A stretch of DNA of 64,000 bases from an uncultured Alphaproteobacteria bacterium (GTDB lineage: Bacteria; Pseudomonadota; Alphaproteobacteria; Rs-D84), in assembly GCA_944389515.1 (NCBI GenBank), contig CALXMQ010000002.1:71094-135093 (forward strand). The letters are read 5' to 3'. The notes under the pieces were generated by a model. It was not told the origin of the DNA and ran no database searches. It saw only the letters and a list, made by a program, of their open reading frames with translations. Positions 8,018-63,836 of this stretch are shown here, one piece after another (position 1 is the stretch's first letter; the number at the start of each line of letters is the position of its first letter). The position numbers were made by a program, and so were the translations under genes.

Positions 8018-8129
8018 TTATTTCATATGAAATAAAAATATAACACACCACGTATTACACCCGGTATTTTTAACACAAAGTTAAAAACAACGAAATATCA
8101 ACGAATTACATAATATTTCATATGAAATT
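8018..8129. promoter_or_regulatory. two parS-like palindromes (TATTTCATATGAAATA at 8018-8033 and TATTTCATATGAAATT at 8114-8129) in the rsmG-parA spacer
   Basis: 12 of 16 positions match the canonical parS TGTTTCACGTGAAACA. Perfect dyad symmetry. Located upstream of parAB. Confidence 0.35.
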
Positions 8130-49783: not shown

Positions 49784-50695
49784 TCAACGTGTATAAGTTT
49801 TATTATTCAATTTAGGCATATTGATATTAGATTTATTGGTTGAATATCTGTCGCATAGTTTTTCAACCTTGTCATCAAAACGTGATAATCTGTCACGATA
49901 ATATGCAATCCAACGTCGACCAAAATGTTCAGATGTTTCATTTTGACGCGCAGGAATATATGAAATTTCACGCATACATTTTTCCCAATCAGATTTTGTA
50001 GCGTTTTTTTCAATAAAATCTAAATAATCCGCGATTACATCAACCAGTTGTTTTCCACGACTGTTTTTTATATTACCACCAGCAGATAAAAATGCCTGAA
50101 TTCCAGCAAGATTGGCATACATTTCATCTTCGACCATTGTATATCCAACCCATTTCATTTTTTCAAAAATGTCACTGGGGGCATTTGGGTTCGGCATGGT
50201 GCGAATATATGCCCGGGTTCTTTGCGACATAGTATATTTTTTATTTATCCGTTTACGACGCCGAATAAAATCAAGCAAAGAAAAATCAAATTTATAATGA
50301 CCAGCAGCCAATTCCCGGGACTTGCGATATGCATGTGTCAATTCATGTGTCAAAATTTCAGCCATCATTTGTCGGTCGATAAAAACATTATCACCATCAA
50401 CACGCACAGGCATATTTATATTTAATTCCAGTTTGATTTTGCCATCACGTAATGAATTACCATTTATAAAAAATGCATCGGCAAATTCTTGGGCATGACC
50501 ATTATCATATTGTTCAGGGGTCAGTCTGTAAAAACAAAAAAATACACGTGATGCATCATCACGAATAAATTCAGGCGCCATCATTGCCGCATCAGTTGAA
50601 GGAATACGATATTTTGTTTCATATTTATCTGTTTTTTCAGATTTATATTTATTTATATATTTATCAATAACAGATAAAATATCCCCAGATTTCAT
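49784..50695 (-). CDS. hypothetical protein with HExxH metallopeptidase-like motif
   Basis: 303 aa, no signal peptide. The only recognisable feature is AEILTHELTHAYR. Confidence 0.35.
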   Translation of the reverse strand: MKSGDILSVIDKYINKYKSEKTDKYETKYRIPSTDAAMMAPEFIRDDASRVFFCFYRLTPEQYDNGHAQEFADAFFINGNSLRDGKIKLELNINMPVRVDGDNVFIDRQMMAEILTHELTHAYRKSRELAAGHYKFDFSLLDFIRRRKRINKKYTMSQRTRAYIRTMPNPNAPSDIFEKMKWVGYTMVEDEMYANLAGIQAFLSAGGNIKNSRGKQLVDVIADYLDFIEKNATKSDWEKCMREISYIPARQNETSEHFGRRWIAYYRDRLSRFDDKVEKLCDRYSTNKSNINMPKLNNKTYTR

Positions 50696-50749: not shown

Positions 50750-50884
50750 TTATTTTTTTCTGAAACCCTGTTTAGCCTTTAACTTTGGGTTATTCGGGTC
50801 AATCAGGATTACCTGTTTACCACGGCGAATTTGTTTTACATTACCGCGTTTTTTCCAGGCCTTTAATGAACTTAAAAACTTCAT
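50750..50884 (-). CDS. rpmJ: 50S ribosomal protein L36, zinc-independent paralogue type (44 aa; below the ORF-track cutoff)
   Basis: Manual translation gives MKFLSSLKAWKKRGNVKQIRRGKQVILIDPNNPKLKAKQGFRKK, which matches the non-Cys L36 form (MKVLxSLK...RRGxxxVICxNPxxKQxQG). Terminator hairpin at 50715-50740. Confidence 0.75.
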   Translation of the reverse strand: MKFLSSLKAWKKRGNVKQIRRGKQVILIDPNNPKLKAKQGFRKK

Positions 50885-50974
50885 ATCTGTATCCTTTGTT
50901 GTGTGGCTATTATAAACGGTTTTTGTGAAAAATCAAATAATAAATAAATATTTGTTGTTGTAATAGGGGCTGTT

Positions 50975-51170
50975 TGTTTTGTTGAAAATTGTTTTTGACT
51001 TTTTATCAACAAGTTTTCAACAATTTTTTGCCGGATTTTAGGGAGTTTTTACACATTTGTTGAAAAATATAGGTGTTTAATAAACAGTTGAAAAATATAT
51101 ATGTTTTTAACAATTTTAACAATTTTTTGAAAACGCTTTTTATACTTGTTGAAAACTGTTGAAATTGTTA
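50975..51170 (+). promoter_or_regulatory. array of at least 6 direct TTGTTGAAAA(A)T repeats plus one inverted copy upstream of virB3
   Basis: Direct copies at 50979, 51056, 51085, 51147 and 51157. Inverted copy ttttcaacaa at 51015. Degenerate ttttaacaatttt copies at 51107-51126. Confidence 0.5.
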
Positions 51171-51502
51171 TAATTCAAGCAAGCAAGGGGGGATTGTATC
51201 CAAAAATGCGACAACAAGTGTTAAAAGCATTGGCAAATCCAGCGCGTATTTTTTACGTGCCTTATTCACTGGCGGTGATAAATTTTGCAGTGCAATTTAT
51301 TGTTTTTATTGTTGTTTTTATAATTGGATTGATTATTTACGGGGCAGATTCTTGGATAAATCCTTTGTATTTTTTAATATCTGTGATTGTGGTTCATATG
51401 ATATTGGCGTTTTTTGCAAAACGTGAACCACAACTGGGACAGATTATATCGGCAAAAATACAACTGATTAAAAAAAAGATACCGGGGCGATTGGCGGCAT
51501 AA
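51146..51502 (+). CDS. virB3: type IV secretion system protein VirB3
   Basis: LKALANPARIFYVPYSLAVINF matches the VirB3 core (FKGLTRPAMIxGVPYxYFxLNF), followed by a TM helix. True start may be the internal ATG at 51206. Confidence 0.7.
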   Translation: MLKTVEIVIIQASKGGLYPKMRQQVLKALANPARIFYVPYSLAVINFAVQFIVFIVVFIIGLIIYGADSWINPLYFLISVIVVHMILAFFAKREPQLGQIISAKIQLIKKKIPGRLAA

Positions 51503-51505
51503 AAT

Positions 51506-53920
51506 ATGAACGGATTTTTTGAACATTTTGCAGGCGGTGAATTTCCAATTACCACAATAATCTTGGTAATGATTGTTGTGTTTGTGTTTATTGTTTTAAT
51601 GATGTATATCCCAGCATTGACACGTAAAATATTTCCTAAATTTGGGTATGTGCGGTATTCGCAATATTTGCCGTTCAAAAATGTTTATACAGATAATTCA
51701 ATAACTTTGACAGATGGGTCGATTATTCGCGTGTATCGCGTGGCAGGTGTTCAAACCAGTATGCAAGATGATGATGCACGTGCTAAATTTTTAGATTTAC
51801 GTTCGCAATTATTTAATCAAATACGTGACCCAAATGTGGTTATCAGATTTTATACTGTGCGTGATGCGGTTGGTGAAAATACAAATTACGAATTTGACCA
51901 GCCCGTATTACAAAAAATTTATAATAAATGGAAATCTCAGGGATTACGTATTTTTACAAATAATTATTATATTGTGTTATCTGTTGGTGGGGCAAATGCA
52001 CGTGAAAAATTAAATCAATATGGTAATTATATTGAATCTATATTGGCGGCATACAGACCCAGTGTATTGCGTAATGATGCGTCTGATAATATGGCAAAAT
52101 TCTTTGGACGTATATTGTCACCAATTACCAAGCCGGCACCAATGGTTTGCGACCAAAATATCAGTGATGTTACAACAGTTGATGATGTTGAATTTATGGA
52201 TAATGGAATAATTCGGTATACTGGTGATGGACGTCAATCATTTGCAGCAGCAATTTCGTTCAAAATGTCACCTGATTATTTAGACGAAGATTTCTTTAAT
52301 GCGATATACACAATTCAAACAGAAATGATTTGCATGAATGCGTTTAGAATAATGGGCGCAGCAGATATTGAATCTGTGTTACGGCAACGTCGTGCAACAG
52401 CCGAAGAAAAAGAAACGTCTGCAACAGAACAAATCAGTGCGGCGGAATCTGCGATGGATGAAAATATTTCTGGAAATCAGAATCTGGTAAATTATTATCC
52501 GTTGTTTTTAATATTTGGTGCCAGTGTTCAAGAATTAGAACAATATATTGATGAATTTAACAAGATTGCTGCATCGTATGGGGTATCACCGATTGTGGAA
52601 TCTTTTGCATCACGTGTGTCTTGGTTTGCACAAATTCCTGGGTTTGATGTTTTTCCGCGCAGTTTCAAAATGTTGTCACGTACTGCGGCGGTCAGTATCC
52701 CGATGTCCAGCACACCACGTGGTGTTGCAAATTGTGATTGGGGCCCGGGGCCATTGGTTATTTTCCCAACTGCCCAGGGTACACCATATCAATTTCAATT
52801 TCATGTATCTGACAAACCAGCCGCAGTGGCACATACTTTGACCATCGGGCCAACAGGCGGTGGTAAAACGACTTTGTTCAGTTTCTTGATTGCGCAATCT
52901 TTGCGACATAAGAAATTAAAAGCGTTTTTCTTTGATAGAAACAAGGGTGCAGAAATTTTCACTTTGTCAGTTGGTGGCAAATATGTGACGATGGTTGGTA
53001 AAGACAAAGATAAAAAAGCGGATTCTTTTCAAACACACTTAAATCCATTAAAAATGTCTGATACCCCAGATAATCGCGCATTTTTGCGGCGGTGGTTTGC
53101 AATGATTACTGGGAACAGTGATGCAAATTCGGCTGATGAAATTGCACGTGCGGTATCGGTAAATTTTGATTATTTACAACAAAATGACAGATTATTAAAA
53201 AATTTATGGGAAAGTTGTTTTTCATCTGTGGGTAATATGAGGCCGGCATTGAAAAAGTGGGTCGACCCGTTACAATATGGTGATATATTTAATGAAGATT
53301 CTGATACGTTGGATTTGAATTCACGTCTGACCACATTTGATTTTACAGATATATTACAAGATGAAACATTGGCGCCGGCTGTGATATCGTATATTTTACA
53401 CAGAATAAATAATGATACTGTGTCGGGAGGTAATCCATCGTTGATTATGATTGATGAAACAGCGCCAATGCTGGAAAATAAAATGTTCCGTGACAGTTTT
53501 ATAACGGGATTGCAAGAAGGGCGTAAAAATCGCCAGGCGTATATGGTTGCATTTCAACGGGCAAATGTTTTGGATAAATTGGGGATTGGTGATGTTGTTC
53601 GTGGCCAGGCGCAAACAGTGCTGTTTTTCCGTAATCCGGCGGCCGATGTGTCGGATTATCAATATTGGAATTTGAATCCATTGGAAATGGCATTTATTCA
53701 GGGCAAGGCATATCCGAATCTGAAACGCGCAGTTTTGTTATCACGGCCGGTTACTGGTGAATCTGTGATTTTGAATACTGAATTGGGTGGTTTGGGTAAT
53801 TTGTTGCGATTGTTTGAATCTGGGCGTTCGTCGGTATTATTGGCCGAAGAATTATATGCACAATATGGAAATAACTTTGTCGCAGAATATTTGAAAAAGC
53901 AAGGGGCAGGCGATTTATAA
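51506..53920 (+). CDS. virB4: type IV secretion system ATPase VirB4
   Basis: 804 aa. N-terminal TM, Walker A GPTGGGKTT, and the CagE/TrbE/VirB4 layout. Confidence 0.9.
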   Translation: MNGFFEHFAGGEFPITTIILVMIVVFVFIVLMMYIPALTRKIFPKFGYVRYSQYLPFKNVYTDNSITLTDGSIIRVYRVAGVQTSMQDDDARAKFLDLRSQLFNQIRDPNVVIRFYTVRDAVGENTNYEFDQPVLQKIYNKWKSQGLRIFTNNYYIVLSVGGANAREKLNQYGNYIESILAAYRPSVLRNDASDNMAKFFGRILSPITKPAPMVCDQNISDVTTVDDVEFMDNGIIRYTGDGRQSFAAAISFKMSPDYLDEDFFNAIYTIQTEMICMNAFRIMGAADIESVLRQRRATAEEKETSATEQISAAESAMDENISGNQNLVNYYPLFLIFGASVQELEQYIDEFNKIAASYGVSPIVESFASRVSWFAQIPGFDVFPRSFKMLSRTAAVSIPMSSTPRGVANCDWGPGPLVIFPTAQGTPYQFQFHVSDKPAAVAHTLTIGPTGGGKTTLFSFLIAQSLRHKKLKAFFFDRNKGAEIFTLSVGGKYVTMVGKDKDKKADSFQTHLNPLKMSDTPDNRAFLRRWFAMITGNSDANSADEIARAVSVNFDYLQQNDRLLKNLWESCFSSVGNMRPALKKWVDPLQYGDIFNEDSDTLDLNSRLTTFDFTDILQDETLAPAVISYILHRINNDTVSGGNPSLIMIDETAPMLENKMFRDSFITGLQEGRKNRQAYMVAFQRANVLDKLGIGDVVRGQAQTVLFFRNPAADVSDYQYWNLNPLEMAFIQGKAYPNLKRAVLLSRPVTGESVILNTELGGLGNLLRLFESGRSSVLLAEELYAQYGNNFVAEYLKKQGAGDL

Positions 53921-53923
53921 AAT

Positions 53924-54544
53924 ATGAAATTTGTAAAAATTTTATGTTTTATTACTTGTTTTATTCCGTGTATTGCACGGGCCAATGATGATTGTTTGCC
54001 ATATAAATTAAAACCAAGTGTTATGTTGGATACACCAACGTGGTCAAAAGAAGTTGTGCAACCGTTGCGTCATATGGATTTGTTACATGGTAATGTTGTT
54101 GCAACAATGGTTGATAATTATGACATTGTGGCTGATATTACAAATATCGAAGATGGATATTGTGTTGCATTAAAATCTGTGTATGCGACGGTTGGGTATA
54201 CTGATTTTTTGGTTCAAATTGATATTCGTCATGTGCCAGAATCATGCACATACAACGCGATTTTATCACACGAAGACGAACATATTCGTGCTTATTTGTC
54301 TGTGATTGATGATTATAAAAAAGAATTAAAAGATTCTGTATATTCGGCGGCGGATTCTGTTACACCAATTTTTGTACGAAATGCCGCGGATATTGATGCG
54401 GCGATTTCTGAATTAAATGATGAATTACAGGCGCATCCAGATTTAATTTTAGTTAAACAAAAAATCAAAGCAGCCGAAGAAATCCGTAACAAGCGTGTTG
54501 ACCAACATGACACTGGTCAATCGTTGCAGAAATGTTTTGAATAA
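53924..54544 (+). CDS. secreted hypothetical protein with HEDEH motif (DUF922-like Zn-peptidase?)
   Basis: Signal peptide MKFVKILCFITCFIPCIARA. Contains ILSHEDEHIRAY. Translationally coupled to the virB4 stop. Confidence 0.35.
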   Translation: MKFVKILCFITCFIPCIARANDDCLPYKLKPSVMLDTPTWSKEVVQPLRHMDLLHGNVVATMVDNYDIVADITNIEDGYCVALKSVYATVGYTDFLVQIDIRHVPESCTYNAILSHEDEHIRAYLSVIDDYKKELKDSVYSAADSVTPIFVRNAADIDAAISELNDELQAHPDLILVKQKIKAAEEIRNKRVDQHDTGQSLQKCFE

Positions 54545-56562: not shown

Positions 56563-56774
56563 TAAAAACACCCCATTTCGGGGTGTTTTTATTTTTAACT
56601 TGGTTGTTGGCGGTGGATTTACTTCGTCACCTGGAAACCTTTGCTGGCGCAAACCGGCGTACTGCCGTCCGCCTGGTTTCGGCGGTTGAACCACATTGCT
56701 TCTGTGGTTCAAAACCAACACAACACACATAAAATAAAAAATACACCACAATGGGTGTATTTTTCATTTTAACT

Positions 56775-56800
<26 letters not shown>
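56563..56800. repeat. diverged direct repeat (56563-56625 and 56736-56800): terminator hairpin plus tttt(a/c)(a/t)tttaacttggttg plus the tRNA-fMet 3' end or a degraded copy of it
   Basis: Copy A: ..ggggtgtttttatttttaacttggttgttggcggtggattt. Copy B: ..gggtgtatttttcattttaacttggttgcggagtgtggattt. The spacer carries ctgtggttcaaaacc, an inverted T-arm-like fragment. Confidence 0.6.
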
Positions 56801-56851
<51 letters not shown>

Positions 56852-60230: not shown

Positions 60231-61493
60231 TTGTCAGGCCAAGTTATAACTGTTGACAGGAAAAAATATGCCGTTGGATTGTTTTGGCAACCCACGGGGG
60301 CTGGGTATGTTGCGCGTACGTATGCACGTGCGTTGGCGCGCAGTATTGATAAAAAACTAAATTTATATACTGAATATCGCGCGATGGTGGGATTGGGGTC
60401 TAAACGTGCCGGTCATCGTAGTGGTATGGACAGTGCCGCCGCCGCCATTGCGGATGCATTGGGGGAATTTACATCATTTTTAGCGGTTTTTGCGCTGGAT
60501 AAATCTTTTTATTTGGTTGCGGTTCGTAATGGCGTGATTTTAGAAGATAAGTTGTTTGAACGTGAAGAAGATGCACGTGCAGAATATTTTAAGTTATCTG
60601 AAATCCCAGATTGGGGCGCGTTGTTTGCACCGGGGGCGTGGGGGATGCCACGTGCGGTTGAACGTAATTTACCTGATTTAATCATGCGTACGGCACGTGC
60701 CACTTTGCGACCAATCAGTCGTGCGCGTGCGGTTGTTGTATCAATTATTTTGGTATTGATGTTTGTGGGTGTGTTTTTGTGGTTCTTTCGTGAACCATTG
60801 CGTCAAATGTTTGCACCGCAACCACAGATATCAAATGTTTCGCCTGAAATCGTTGCAGAATATGAACGTCAGGTCGAAGAAAAAAATAAAGAATTGGACG
60901 AACAATTTCAAATTGAACGTGCACCACAGCCGGAACCAATTATATTGCCGTATGAATTTTTACCAAATCCAACAATACGTGCAGAAACATGTTTCCAGGC
61001 AATCGCGTTTTTAATGCAACCTATTACTGGGTGGAGTCAGGTTTCCGCGGAATGTGGTGAAACACATGCCAGTGTTGTATTTAATCGTGATTTTGGCACA
61101 TTAAATGATTTTTATGCGACGGCCACAGAATTGATGCCTGGGTCGTTTGTACAACAAGAATCTGATGATACGTTGTATGTGCGTGCAACATTGCCGGCAG
61201 TGCCGACGTATGCATCATTGGATGAACGTGATGTTGAAACAGTATTACGCGCGGTGTTGAGTGCATTTCAATACGGTGGGATGTCTGTGGATGCGCAAAT
61301 GGTGACAGATACTTTGACCAATGGGGTTGATACAGTAAATCTGGATATAGTAGAAGTTGCGGCAGAATCAAAATTAAATCCAATGCAATTTATGAAGATT
61401 TTTGAAGAATTTGGCGGGGTGTATATGACGCGCTGTGCGTGGGATGCATCAACACGGAACTGGAACTATGAGGTGATAATCTATGCGAAATAA
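60231..61493 (+). CDS. bitopic inner-membrane type IVb pilus assembly protein (BfpC / R64 PilO-like), TTG start
   Basis: 420 aa. About 165 aa cytoplasmic, a single TM (VVVSIILVLMFVGVFLWFF), then about 235 aa periplasmic. Position and topology match bfpC/pilO upstream of the ATPase. Confidence 0.45.
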   Translation: MSGQVITVDRKKYAVGLFWQPTGAGYVARTYARALARSIDKKLNLYTEYRAMVGLGSKRAGHRSGMDSAAAAIADALGEFTSFLAVFALDKSFYLVAVRNGVILEDKLFEREEDARAEYFKLSEIPDWGALFAPGAWGMPRAVERNLPDLIMRTARATLRPISRARAVVVSIILVLMFVGVFLWFFREPLRQMFAPQPQISNVSPEIVAEYERQVEEKNKELDEQFQIERAPQPEPIILPYEFLPNPTIRAETCFQAIAFLMQPITGWSQVSAECGETHASVVFNRDFGTLNDFYATATELMPGSFVQQESDDTLYVRATLPAVPTYASLDERDVETVLRAVLSAFQYGGMSVDAQMVTDTLTNGVDTVNLDIVEVAAESKLNPMQFMKIFEEFGGVYMTRCAWDASTRNWNYEVIIYAK

Positions 61494-62187
61494 AATTATG
61501 TTTTTGTCAGTGTTTATGTTTTCAATGCTGATGTGCGCACCGGCTGAATTGATGGCGGCGACATCTGGGGGGTCGGCGTCCGAGGCAGCAGTTGCCCAAG
61601 ATATCGCCGCAGAAATGGAAGCGGTTTCCGCAGATGCGGTGGCAGCATATGATGCGTCTGGGTCTGTGTTTCAGCAAATTACTGATTTAGAACAAGAAAA
61701 GGTTTTAATGGAACTGGAAAAAGAACGCGCCCAGTTGGATTTAGAATTAGACAGATTGGCGGCTGAAAAAATCAAATTACATATGGAAATTGATGAATTG
61801 TCTGGACGTGCAGAACAACAGCAACAAGAACTGGAAAATGCCCAGGCAAAGTTAGAAGCCGAAGCCGCAAAATTAGAACGTGAAAAAGAAGCCTTGGAAG
61901 CCCAAACAGAAGAATTGGCAACAAAAAAGACGACAAGTGCAACAACAAATAAATCTGATGAAGGTAAGTCGTTTGATTTTGGTGATCAATACAGATTGGT
62001 AAATGTTATTGGGGCTGGTGCCCAATTACAGGCGACAATCGAAAATTTAGCAACAGGGCAAAATAGAACAATCAGTGTTGGCAAGGTTGTTGATGGTTAT
62101 ACAGTTACATCAATATCTTTGGACGAAGGTGTTGTATTTTCTGATGGTAATGATACCCAGACGTTAAATATTACAAAATCAAAATAA
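61483..62187 (+). CDS. periplasmic coiled-coil protein (BfpU/PilP-like by position)
   Basis: Signal peptide. About 90 aa of E/A/L/K heptad coiled coil. C-terminal beta-rich domain. Confidence 0.35.
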   Translation: MRNKIMFLSVFMFSMLMCAPAELMAATSGGSASEAAVAQDIAAEMEAVSADAVAAYDASGSVFQQITDLEQEKVLMELEKERAQLDLELDRLAAEKIKLHMEIDELSGRAEQQQQELENAQAKLEAEAAKLEREKEALEAQTEELATKKTTSATTNKSDEGKSFDFGDQYRLVNVIGAGAQLQATIENLATGQNRTISVGKVVDGYTVTSISLDEGVVFSDGNDTQTLNITKSK

Positions 62188-62198
62188 AGCGGCGGATT

Positions 62199-63836
62199 AT
62201 GAACGAAGCGGAAAACAATATCATAAACAATATACCGGTGGCGTCACGGCCGTCAATTCCAGCAGGATTGGAAACGGCTGATAACAAGGATATTGTAGAT
62301 TATCTGTTTTCAAATGGAAACAGGTTGTTGACCGCAACAGGTGCAGAACAAGAATTACCAAAAGATACCCAGGGTTTAATTGCGTATTTTTCAGGTGGTG
62401 AAATAATTGTTTCGCGTACACATCGTTATGATGGACGTGTGTTGGCTTTTTTGGATTTGTTAAAGAAACGGGCGCTGCCGATGCGTATACCGTTTTATTC
62501 TGATTTGGGTTTGGTTTCCAGTATATACAAGGCATACGAAGGGCGTTTGGGTGGGGTCGCACGTTCGCGTCAGGATTATGACAACCAAATGCAAAAAGAC
62601 TTTGTCGATATTATTGCCAAGGCCGCGGCGCAAAAGGTTTCTGATATTCATATCGAAGTTGCGGACCAAACAACAATTTATTTCCGTATCGATGGCAGTA
62701 TGCAGCCTGTGTTGGAATATAATTCAGGGTGGGGGGAATCTTTTGTTCGTGCGGCGTTTGCATCGTCTGATATGTCAAATGCAAACTATGCGCAAAATGA
62801 ATACCAGGCGGCACAAAAAGATGGGCGTACACCATTACGTGGCACCAAAGATTTATATTTGCCACGTGGTATATTGAGTATTCGTATGCAATTTAATCCA
62901 ATCGCATTTGGCAGTCGTTATGTCGTTATGCGATTGTTATATGATAATCCATCCGAAGGTATAAAAACAGAACAAGAATTTGGTGAATATGAACAAAAAT
63001 TATTGATGCGGTTGCGGTCTTTTCCAACAGGTTTGGTAATTGTTGCCGGTCCCACCAGTTCTGGGAAATCAACCACGTTGGTGCGTAATATGTCTTTGAT
63101 GTTAAAAGAACATCATTATGAAATAAACTTGATAACCGTGGAAGATCCGGTTGAACAAAAAATATTTGGCGCGCATCAAATGCCGGTGGTAAATACAACA
63201 AACGAAGAACAACGTGAAGAAAAGTATACCGAAGCGTTGGCCGCCGCGTTGCGCAGTGACCCTGATACGTTGATGGTGGGGGAAATTCGTACGTTGGCCG
63301 CCGCCCAGTTGACTGTGCGTGGGGCGTTGTCTGGGCATAATGTGTGGACAACATTGCATGCAAATTCTGCAATGTCTGCATTGACGCGATTGCTGGATTT
63401 GGGAATAGAAGCGTTTAAGTTAAAAGAAGAAACATTGATGCGTGGATTGATATCTATGCGTTTGTTCAAAAAGTTATGCCCACATTGTCGTGAACGTTTG
63501 ATTGATCATCCAGAGGCACCTGAATACGGGCGTGTTATGGATGCGTTTGGTGAATTGGGATTACGCCAGGTATATATTCGTGGCGCCGGATGTGAAGAGT
63601 GCAAAGGTACAGGAACGTTGGGGCGTATCAAGGCCGGGGAAATTATTATTACTAACAGTGAATTTTTACGTATGGCGTTGGCCGGAAATACAGATGGGGC
63701 GTATAAGTATTGGTTAGAAGAAATGGATGGACGTACGCTGAAAGAGGCCGCCACAGCATTGATGTTACAGGGTATTATTGGTGTTGATGAACTGGAACGT
63801 TGGGTTGGGCTGTTGGATAGACCGGGGGTATATTGA
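62199..63836 (+). CDS. GspE/PilB-family secretion ATPase (type IVb pilus assembly ATPase, BfpD / R64 PilQ-like)
   Basis: Walker A AGPTSSGKSTT. Asp and His boxes. C-terminal tetracysteine CPHC...CEEC, typical of GspE/PilB/BfpD. Confidence 0.85.
   Translation: MNEAENNIINNIPVASRPSIPAGLETADNKDIVDYLFSNGNRLLTATGAEQELPKDTQGLIAYFSGGEIIVSRTHRYDGRVLAFLDLLKKRALPMRIPFYSDLGLVSSIYKAYEGRLGGVARSRQDYDNQMQKDFVDIIAKAAAQKVSDIHIEVADQTTIYFRIDGSMQPVLEYNSGWGESFVRAAFASSDMSNANYAQNEYQAAQKDGRTPLRGTKDLYLPRGILSIRMQFNPIAFGSRYVVMRLLYDNPSEGIKTEQEFGEYEQKLLMRLRSFPTGLVIVAGPTSSGKSTTLVRNMSLMLKEHHYEINLITVEDPVEQKIFGAHQMPVVNTTNEEQREEKYTEALAAALRSDPDTLMVGEIRTLAAAQLTVRGALSGHNVWTTLHANSAMSALTRLLDLGIEAFKLKEETLMRGLISMRLFKKLCPHCRERLIDHPEAPEYGRVMDAFGELGLRQVYIRGAGCEECKGTGTLGRIKAGEIIITNSEFLRMALAGNTDGAYKYWLEEMDGRTLKEAATALMLQGIIGVDELERWVGLLDRPGVY

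Follow-up and report, generated by a model that had tools for sequence, protein, structure and literature searches.

At bacterial chromosomal replication origins (oriC), such as E. coli oriC, the incC region of Bacillus subtilis and the cyanobacterial origins that carry the box TTTTCCACA, many asymmetric 9-bp DnaA boxes lie in both orientations within 200-300 bp of intergenic DNA, an AT-rich tract adjoins them, and a promoter reads out of the region. Known examples of such promoters are gidA/mioC at E. coli oriC and hemE Ps in the Caulobacter origin (Cori). Here we describe a locus with a similar layout in a 64-kb stretch of DNA, hereafter the window, which is part of the chromosome of 'Candidatus Enterousia' (order Rs-D84, gut Alphaproteobacteria with genomes of ~0.9 Mb). 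The locus is the 320-bp spacer (50885-51205) between the divergent genes rpmJ and virB3, where ten 9-bp boxes in both orientations occur within 200 bp. With modest confidence, we favor the interpretation that the array is built of variant DnaA boxes and most likely represents oriC, and that the boxes nearest the promoter would also govern virB3-virB4.

The array differs from the bacterial oriC clusters named above in that position 6 of its box is A, there is no run of NAN DnaA-trios, dnaA, dnaN and hemE are not adjacent, and the skew shows no clean V-shaped minimum. The origins of other Alphaproteobacteria (Caulobacter Cori and the ori regions of Rickettsia, Wolbachia and Ehrlichia) come from the same class of organism and share with the array an intergenic location and an embedded or outward promoter. 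These origins are located between hemE and COG1806/CBS-domain genes and contain 2-5 loose DnaA boxes together with CtrA (TTAA-N7-TTAA) and integration host factor (IHF) sites. In contrast, the array contains ten boxes, no exact CtrA site and no match to an IHF site, and is located between rpmJ and virB3.

A conserved array of 9-bp boxes between rpmJ and virB3

Against 7.6 expected occurrences, 15 exact copies of the 8-mer GTTGAAAA are found in the 64 kb, and five of them lie within 50981-51155 (plus strand, 50981, 51059, 51087 and 51148; minus strand, 51014). Four of the nine exact matches to the 9-mer TGTTGAAAA in the window, and 8 of the 82 matches with at most one mismatch, fall within a single 200-bp span, whereas other equally AT-rich 200-bp spans hold 0-3 TGTTGAAAA matches each. 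Furthermore, the commonest 9-mer is present in 10 copies in the spacer compared to at most 5 in every other intergenic region, which agrees with the first-pass annotation of this DNA, according to which nothing comparable precedes the other operons in the window. That annotation had reported a repeat array upstream of virB3 made of direct copies and a single inverted copy. The array is real and the direct copies hold (plus-strand boxes at 50980, 51058, 51086, 51147 and 51157), but four inverted boxes were found instead of one (51003, 51014, 51104 and 51113), with a degenerate partner at 50971. Two near-identical copies had also been noted; they belong to a 20-nt repeat (51059-51078 vs 51087-51106, 90% identity), the first coordinate of the original pair being off by one. 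The spacing of box pairs varies (9, 10, 11 and 28 bp), and no regular 20-22-bp period of direct repeats was found in the array. A literature search for the array 9-mers returned almost only primers.

To assess conservation, we used homologues of VirB4 (51506-53920), which are 76-91% identical and present in 80 species-level genomes, nearly all of which come from animal guts and bear the label Candidatus Enterousia, uncultured Alphaproteobacteria or uncultured Rickettsiales. One of them is a closed chromosome of 958,618 bp (OZ007020.1), in which virB4 is located at 205,620-208,031 and the array at ~205.1-205.3 kb. The 80 VirB4 loci were compared for synteny, 79 sequences were used in the box alignment, and 75 loci included upstream sequence. 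In all 80 relatives, most exact copies found in the 10-kb locus sit in the 350 bp upstream of virB3, and the array is kept site by site at a single-copy, syntenic locus. The boxes keep their order and orientation across the 79 aligned sequences: A'/A, inverted B'/B, C, D, inverted E/F, H/I, then TGTTATAAT. Mean conservation was 0.85 for boxes, including their G/C positions, and 0.66 for spacers (Mann-Whitney p=3e-8). The most invariant part comprises boxes H and I and the extended -10 element of the virB3 promoter (99-100%), whereas a copy at 51125, which would be counted among the repeats according to the first-pass annotation, is poorly kept in relatives (0.49). Conservation extends to the rpmJ side, to both the GGGCC/GGGGC cluster and a tract of 85% A+T that contains the run TTGTTGTT, and rpmJ is linked to the array in 75/75 relatives with upstream sequence (tblastn). 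These results show that the repeats are a real, conserved array, predicted to be bound by a protein.

From left to right, and with strands as annotated for each feature, the array consists of box pair A'/A (50971-50988, minus strand; TGTTTGTTT + TGTTGAAAA in the window and TGTTGATAT + TGTTGAAAA in the genus consensus; A conserved at 0.94), box pair B'/B (51003-51022, plus strand; TTATCAACA and TTTTCAACA, with starts 11 bp apart; 0.85 and 0.93), box C (51058-51066, minus strand; TGTTGAAAA; 0.93), box D (51086-51094, minus strand; AGTTGAAAA; 0.86), box pair E/F (51104-51121, plus strand; TTTTTAACA + ATTTTAACA in the window and TTTTCAACA + TTTTTAACA in the consensus; 0.91 and 0.88) and box pair H/I (51147-51165, minus strand; TGTTGAAAA-c-TGTTGAAAT, a 10-bp tandem; 1.00 and 0.99). 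Boxes D and E form an inverted pair with a 9-bp spacer in nearly all relatives.

The array region is 74% A+T and the motif itself holds an A4 run, as would be expected of an AT-rich, low-complexity artefact. Likewise, VirB4 genes are usually plasmid-borne, which would fit the iteron oriV of an integrated plasmid, and a miniature inverted-repeat transposable element-like repeat could also be envisioned. We consider such neutral and artefactual explanations effectively excluded. A compositional artefact, which the first-pass annotation had named as the finding that would overturn the array, was rejected based on the low counts in equally AT-rich segments and on the site-wise conservation of the boxes above that of the spacers. 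The single-copy, syntenic location in 80 species also argues against a neutral repeat, and there was little sign of a structured RNA at the array (weak folding z-scores of -2.3 and -2.0, and no Rfam match). Plasmid iterons (Rep_3-type oriV) resemble the array in having repeated initiator-type sites beside an AT-rich tract. However, iterons are 17-22 bp long, mostly in one orientation, regularly spaced and adjacent to a rep gene, whereas the array units are 9 bp long, of mixed orientation and irregularly spaced, and no rep gene was found in the window. No relaxase or integrase gene was found nearby either, and the window had no DNA similarity to any of 72,556 plasmids. Given its gene content, the window is chromosomal and not part of a plasmid. 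It includes mutS, infC, parB, parA, gidB, mreB, rnpA, accBC, recF, metG, fabDG, gidA, ileS, pheST, mreC-pbp2-rodA, topA, dnaG and ychF, followed by rpmJ, virB3, virB4, a gene for a 206-aa protein (p206), abcF, lpxK, lpxC and type IVb pilus genes.

One relative, L068, carries a second array (1150-1290) of four TTTTYAACA boxes in one orientation, ~40 bp apart and each beside 'caccgg'. This extra array is flanked on both sides by gene ends, as ychF and an open reading frame of 122 aa converge on it with their 3' ends, and therefore is not a promoter.

Similarity of the boxes to the DnaA box

Based on nine boxes in 79 genomes, the array box reads T.80 T.95 (T.85/A.14) T.99 (C.63/T.31) A.99 A.97 C.97 A.86, that is, TTWTYAACA. 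The relaxed DnaA box has been given as TT(A/T)TNCACA (quoted in PMC4674748) and as TTATNCACA (PMC1914354). TTWTYAACA is compatible with TT(A/T)TNCACA at 8 of 9 positions, the sole difference being an A for the C at position 6, and the two variable positions of the array box, 3 and 5, are precisely both degenerate positions of the DnaA box. An equally good fit was obtained with only 0.08% of the permuted column orders of the motif and 0.25% of 9-mers drawn at random, which corresponds to a chance of ~1-2% once the roughly ten motif families compared are allowed for. Only three sites within one mismatch of TTATNCACA occur in the array spacer, compared to at most two in any other intergenic region. 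Box B' (TTATCAACA) differs from TTATCCACA by one mismatch, and a TTATCAACA box is annotated in a predicted origin of Cyanothece. TTTTCAACA is one base apart from the cyanobacterial species-specific box TTTTCCACA.

Other readings of the motif were rejected, since the vir box, CtrA, IHF, LexA and sigma-32 sites fit no further than TTGAAA. The consensus of the VirG vir box is the 12-bp TNCAATTGAAAY; only TTGAAA is common to it and the array, and the best site, AACAGTTGAAAA at box D, has 3 mismatches. PhoP/ArcA/PhoB repeats, the Spo0A box and the others compared have at most TTGAAA or a TGTT core in common with the box. No exact match to the CtrA motif TTAA-N7-TTAA and no IHF site were found in the array region, and the 14 matches to the loose form TTWW-N7-TTWW are as expected at 74% A+T.

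The left end of the array resembles the unwinding module of an origin. A tract of ~85% A+T with the conserved TTGTTGTT run (50925-50965; columns 80-99% conserved in 79 genomes) is a candidate DNA-unwinding element. This tract runs into the candidate rpmJ promoter, TTGATT-16-TATAAT (50909-50936, minus strand; 10/12 in a consensus scan and conserved in relatives), where it overlaps the UP region and the -35 hexamer. A G+C cluster, GGGGC in the window and GGGCC in the genus consensus (50966-50970), separates the tract from box pair A'/A. This order resembles that at boxes 6/7 of B. subtilis, with a tandem box pair, a short G+C cluster (GGCCC) and then an AT-rich tract. The region of B. subtilis boxes 6/7 is adjoined by CTACTATTACTTCTACTA (PMC10201434). 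The combination of ten boxes in both orientations, irregular spacing, an AT-rich tract and a G+C cluster is one typically seen at origins, and would be unusual if it served just one promoter.

Most likely, the array is the oriC, or the main box cluster of the oriC, of Candidatus Enterousia. In such a scenario, a DnaA protein whose recognition of box position 6 has shifted from C to A would fill the boxes and oligomerize, and would open the AT-rich tract beside box pair A'/A, from where forks would leave both ways. A lineage-specific box has been described before: in the oriC of Thermotoga maritima the DnaA box is a re-specified 12-mer, AAACCTACCACC, which sets a precedent for a lineage-wide shift of box specificity through substitutions in domain IV of DnaA (cited in PMC6669920). 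Unlike in Thermotoga, the change at the array would affect a single position in a 9-mer.

If this interpretation is correct, the whole order Rs-D84 uses a DnaA box with A in place of the near-universal C at position 6. After Thermotoga, this would be one of very few cases in nature in which the initiator-DNA code has been re-specified, and would explain why origin finders keyed to TTATCCACA would miss Rs-D84 origins. It would also provide a defined site for peak-to-trough growth-rate estimates of Enterousia in gut metagenomes, and would place a type IV secretion operon directly under initiator occupancy.

Chromosomal position and strand bias

The window is origin-proximal. It contains parAB, gidB, gidA, recF, rnpA-yidD, dnaG and topA, and gyrB lies 6 kb beyond it. 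parAB-gidB and two parS-like palindromes are located 43 kb from the array. The palindromes (atttcatatgaaat at 8022-8035 and 8115-8128), most likely parS centromere sites, lie upstream of parA and downstream of gidB, and in 14 Rs-D84 relatives retrieved with ParA the element conserved upstream of parA consists of their variants tttcacatgaaa and gtttcatgtgaaac. A small cluster of boxes upstream of parA (7975, 8067 and 8094) was considered as a second origin and rejected, as the 14 relatives keep the parS-like palindromes only. No box cluster comparable to the array was found in 443 kb of other loci.

We then examined gene orientation and GC skew at third codon positions (GC3 skew), including 10-kb extensions beyond both window ends. 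About 80% of the genes left of 8.7 kb are on the minus strand, and about 80% of those right of 51.2 kb are on the plus strand, both including the 10-kb extensions. From gidB to mutS the G-rich strand is the minus strand. From virB3 rightwards for at least 23 kb, the coding-strand GC3 skew of plus-strand genes is +0.22 to +0.86, and that of minus-strand genes is -0.1 to -0.34. In relatives, abcF, lipocalin, DUF374 and lpxK genes have a GC3 skew of ~+0.33 to +0.43 when located downstream of virB4 and co-oriented with it, and of -0.07 to -0.23 when inverted. Because the same genes switch skew with orientation, the skew is a property of the DNA strand and not of the genes. Plus-strand genes upstream of the array appear lagging-like (abcF, -0.01; dnaG, -0.04; sufBD, -0.05), and the onset of the strong right-hand bias, at virB3, coincides with the array. 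Gene orientation and GC3 skew both flip, and therefore an origin-type pattern, with minus leading to the left and plus leading to the right, is present in the window. The origin is probably inside the window.

Several observations weigh against locating it at the array. From 8.7 to 50.7 kb the GC3 skew is ~+0.13 for genes of either strand, that is, no replication-type bias, and the orientation-corrected cumulative GC3 skew is flat, its minimum shifting between 22.7 and 34 kb with the correction applied. Plus-strand genes make up two thirds of this plateau and are hence head-on to a leftward fork from the array, and the far-left extension is also weakly biased. The median GC3 skew of virB4, 0.355, falls to ~0.1 in eight rearranged, polyphyletic relatives, and in L053 and L080 the bias is weak on both sides of the array. 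DnaA boxes normally have an invariant C at position 6, where 99% of the array boxes have A, and dnaA was not found by tblastn, using an E. coli DnaA query, in ~100 kb of this genome or in the relatives' loci. According to the basal unwinding system rule, a box or box pair is followed, after a spacer of at most 16 bp, by three or more NAN trios, which are carried by the strand opposite to that of the box (PMC8287927). A box pair and a 5-bp G+C spacer are present at the A'/A end, but the sequence beyond reads GAT AAT GTT GTT GTT in the window and GAT GTT TTT GTT GTT in the genus consensus, and thus lacks three NAN trios; Bacillus-type DnaA-trios were rejected on these grounds despite the similar architecture. 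Finally, the best-conserved boxes are the two that sit on the virB3 promoter, as a transcriptional operator would also show.

Since virB4 skew is low in rearranged relatives (such as L053 and L080), the array is not always the onset of strong bias. The block rpmJ-array-virB3-virB4-p206 moves or inverts as one unit in several lineages, being inverted or re-flanked in L050, L053-L055, L057, L075, L079 and L080, in at least six independent lineages. A virB4 skew of ~0.1 in all rearranged loci fits a boundary at the array and frequent flipping alike, and rearrangement may erase strand bias in this rearrangement-prone region. The flat 42-kb plateau and the patchy left side prevent a point estimate of the origin by skew; GC skew is often uninformative for alphaproteobacterial origins (PMC1914354). 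The plateau itself, apparently at equilibrium, lies between two strongly and oppositely biased segments (gidB-mutS and virB3 onwards) and is surrounded by many local inversions in the genus.

The plateau, together with gene orientation, favors an origin further left. In that case the array would still be a DnaA-box cluster, with the same box evidence, but would act near the origin, either as a promoter regulated by DnaA or as a titration site like datA, and the true oriC would lie elsewhere within 8.7-50.7 kb, its boxes being few and weak like those of Caulobacter and the Rickettsiales. An oriC with no more than the 2-5 loose boxes of Rickettsiales origins (PMC1914354) could go unnoticed in a search for repeats. 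However, the intergenic regions of the plateau contain no box cluster, no exact CtrA site and no more than two loose DnaA boxes, and the AT-rich tract, G+C cluster and box pairs at the left end of the array resemble an unwinding module and not a titration site. We regard a cluster outside the origin as unlikely. Even less probable is a one-sided origin of DNA synthesis coupled to VirB3/VirB4, either an oriT-like or rolling-circle start for the export of chromosomal DNA, such as occurs from the gonococcal genetic island, or a site for an initiator other than DnaA. Synthesis would then proceed rightwards only, which would explain the abrupt strong bias at virB3 and its absence on the other side across the genus.

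The virB3 promoter and the neighboring genes

Downstream of the array, an extended -10 element, TGtTATAAT (TGTTATAAT; 51166-51174, plus strand; 0.99 conserved), defines the predicted virB3 promoter, from which transcription would start near 51181. Box pair H/I covers ~-34 to -15 of this promoter, that is, the -35/spacer region, and abuts the extended -10. Whatever occupies these boxes should therefore affect virB3 transcription. If the array is a DnaA-box cluster, occupancy of boxes H/I would tie virB3-virB4-p206 transcription to initiator occupancy, and repression would be likelier than activation given that H/I sit on the promoter.

The best-conserved part of the array, H/I, overlies an invariant extended -10 promoter from -34 to -15, as would be equally expected of a dedicated operator array. 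Here, a transcription factor encoded elsewhere would bind the box pairs and control the promoter of virB3-virB4-p206, and perhaps that of rpmJ, by occlusion at H/I, with the upstream sites providing cooperativity or looping. Possible occupants would be an OmpR/PhoB-type response regulator, which reads direct repeats, or a protein with tandem winged-helix domains in one chain. The pairs A'/A, B'/B, E/F and H/I, whose members share an orientation and are 9-11 bp apart, resemble the direct-repeat sites of PhoP (TGTTTA-N5-TGTTTA), ArcA and PhoB, and multi-site control is known at promoters of type IV secretion systems (T4SS), such as those governed by VirG through the vir box in Agrobacterium and by EcxR in Ehrlichia. 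As in response-regulator operators (PhoP, ArcA, PhoB and the vir box TNCAATTGAAAY), TGTTGA-type hexamers lie in ~10-bp tandem over the -35 with a T4SS operon downstream, and the array stays with virB3 through every rearrangement.

Several results make this operator array the less probable interpretation. Unlike the sites of response regulators, which keep a fixed register, the box pairs are spaced 9, 10, 11 or 28 bp apart, and ten sites in both orientations for one operon would be extravagant in a 0.9-Mb genome. A scan of ~100 kb from this genome, and of 443 kb from other loci that did not include other Enterousia T4SS loci, placed the motif upstream of no other gene. The extra array of L068 is not at a promoter. 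The vir box has only TTGAAA in common with the boxes, no exact CtrA site was found, and the close match to the DnaA box, down to the degenerate positions, would have to be coincidental, at ~0.1-0.3%. No two-component genes (VirA/VirG) were found in the window, and no DNA-binding or regulator gene lies next to the cassette in the window, in its 20 kb of extensions or in any of the 80 genomes. The nearest helix-turn-helix proteins are at least 16 kb away. An operator reading would imply an unusually elaborate secretion-operon promoter in a reduced genome, of local interest only.

Within 20 kb of the window ends, a tandem ArsR-type protein and an XRE-type protein are encoded, which count among the candidates for an operator-binding factor. 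The former (L081 18319-18987, minus strand, ~6.7 kb past the right window end), the closest DNA-binding protein of an unusual kind, is 222 aa long and carries two ArsR/SmtB winged-helix domains in one chain; such a built-in pseudo-dimer would read a two-part site. Nothing links this protein to the boxes, or the XRE-type protein to the motif.

The first-pass annotation had described the repeats as a multi-operator or iteron-like binding array controlling virB3-virB4. The general description stands, as the boxes are conserved, of a size suited to a protein, and overlap with their last two members the -35/spacer of an invariant virB3 promoter. A dedicated controller of T4SS operons finds no support from the distribution of the motif or from the L068 array, and the proposed search for a cognate regulator yielded no regulator gene near the cassette in the window and 20 kb of extensions. 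Because the box matches the DnaA box and the locus is origin-proximal at a strand-bias flip, 'iteron-like' is closer to the evidence than 'operator', neither being proven.

To the left of the array, rpmJ (50750-50884, minus strand; PF00444, E=8e-5) encodes ribosomal protein L36 of the alphaproteobacterial type and is divergent from virB3. To the right, virB3 (51206-51502, plus strand; 98 aa; PF05101, E=4.7e-8) is preceded by a ribosome-binding site, AAGGGGGG, at 51185-51193, and is followed by virB4 (51506-53920, plus strand; PF03135), which encodes a divergent VirB4/CagE ATPase of 804 aa. This protein scores 375 bits against TIGR00929, under the family cutoff, and its best plasmid homologues are 32% identical. 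The third gene of the conserved cassette (53924-54544, plus strand), always found after virB3-virB4, encodes p206, a secreted HExxH protein of unknown family with a signal peptide and the motif HEDEH. Another HExxH protein, p303 (49784-50695, minus strand), has the motif HELTH and is recognizable in just 8 of the 80 relatives. Neither p206 nor p303 had matches in protein families, NCBIfam or PDB, and both were rejected as regulators since they have no DNA-binding features.

Genomes of Rs-D84 members, including Enterousia, are smaller than 1 Mb, and an obligate symbiotic or parasitic lifestyle has been predicted for these bacteria (PMC12306168). The genome studied here is said to be without flagella. 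R64-type type IVb pilus genes (PilO, PilP-like, T2SSE ATPase and T2SSF platform protein) are located 6 kb downstream of the VirB3/VirB4 cassette (60231-63836, and L081 11589-12713). Between the cassette and these genes, the intact tRNA-Met gene (56775-56851, minus strand) is accompanied, at a distance of ~175 bp, by a short duplicate of its 3' end and flank (ttttaacttggttg...gtggattt; 56592-56625 vs 56768-56800), which may be an old integration scar.

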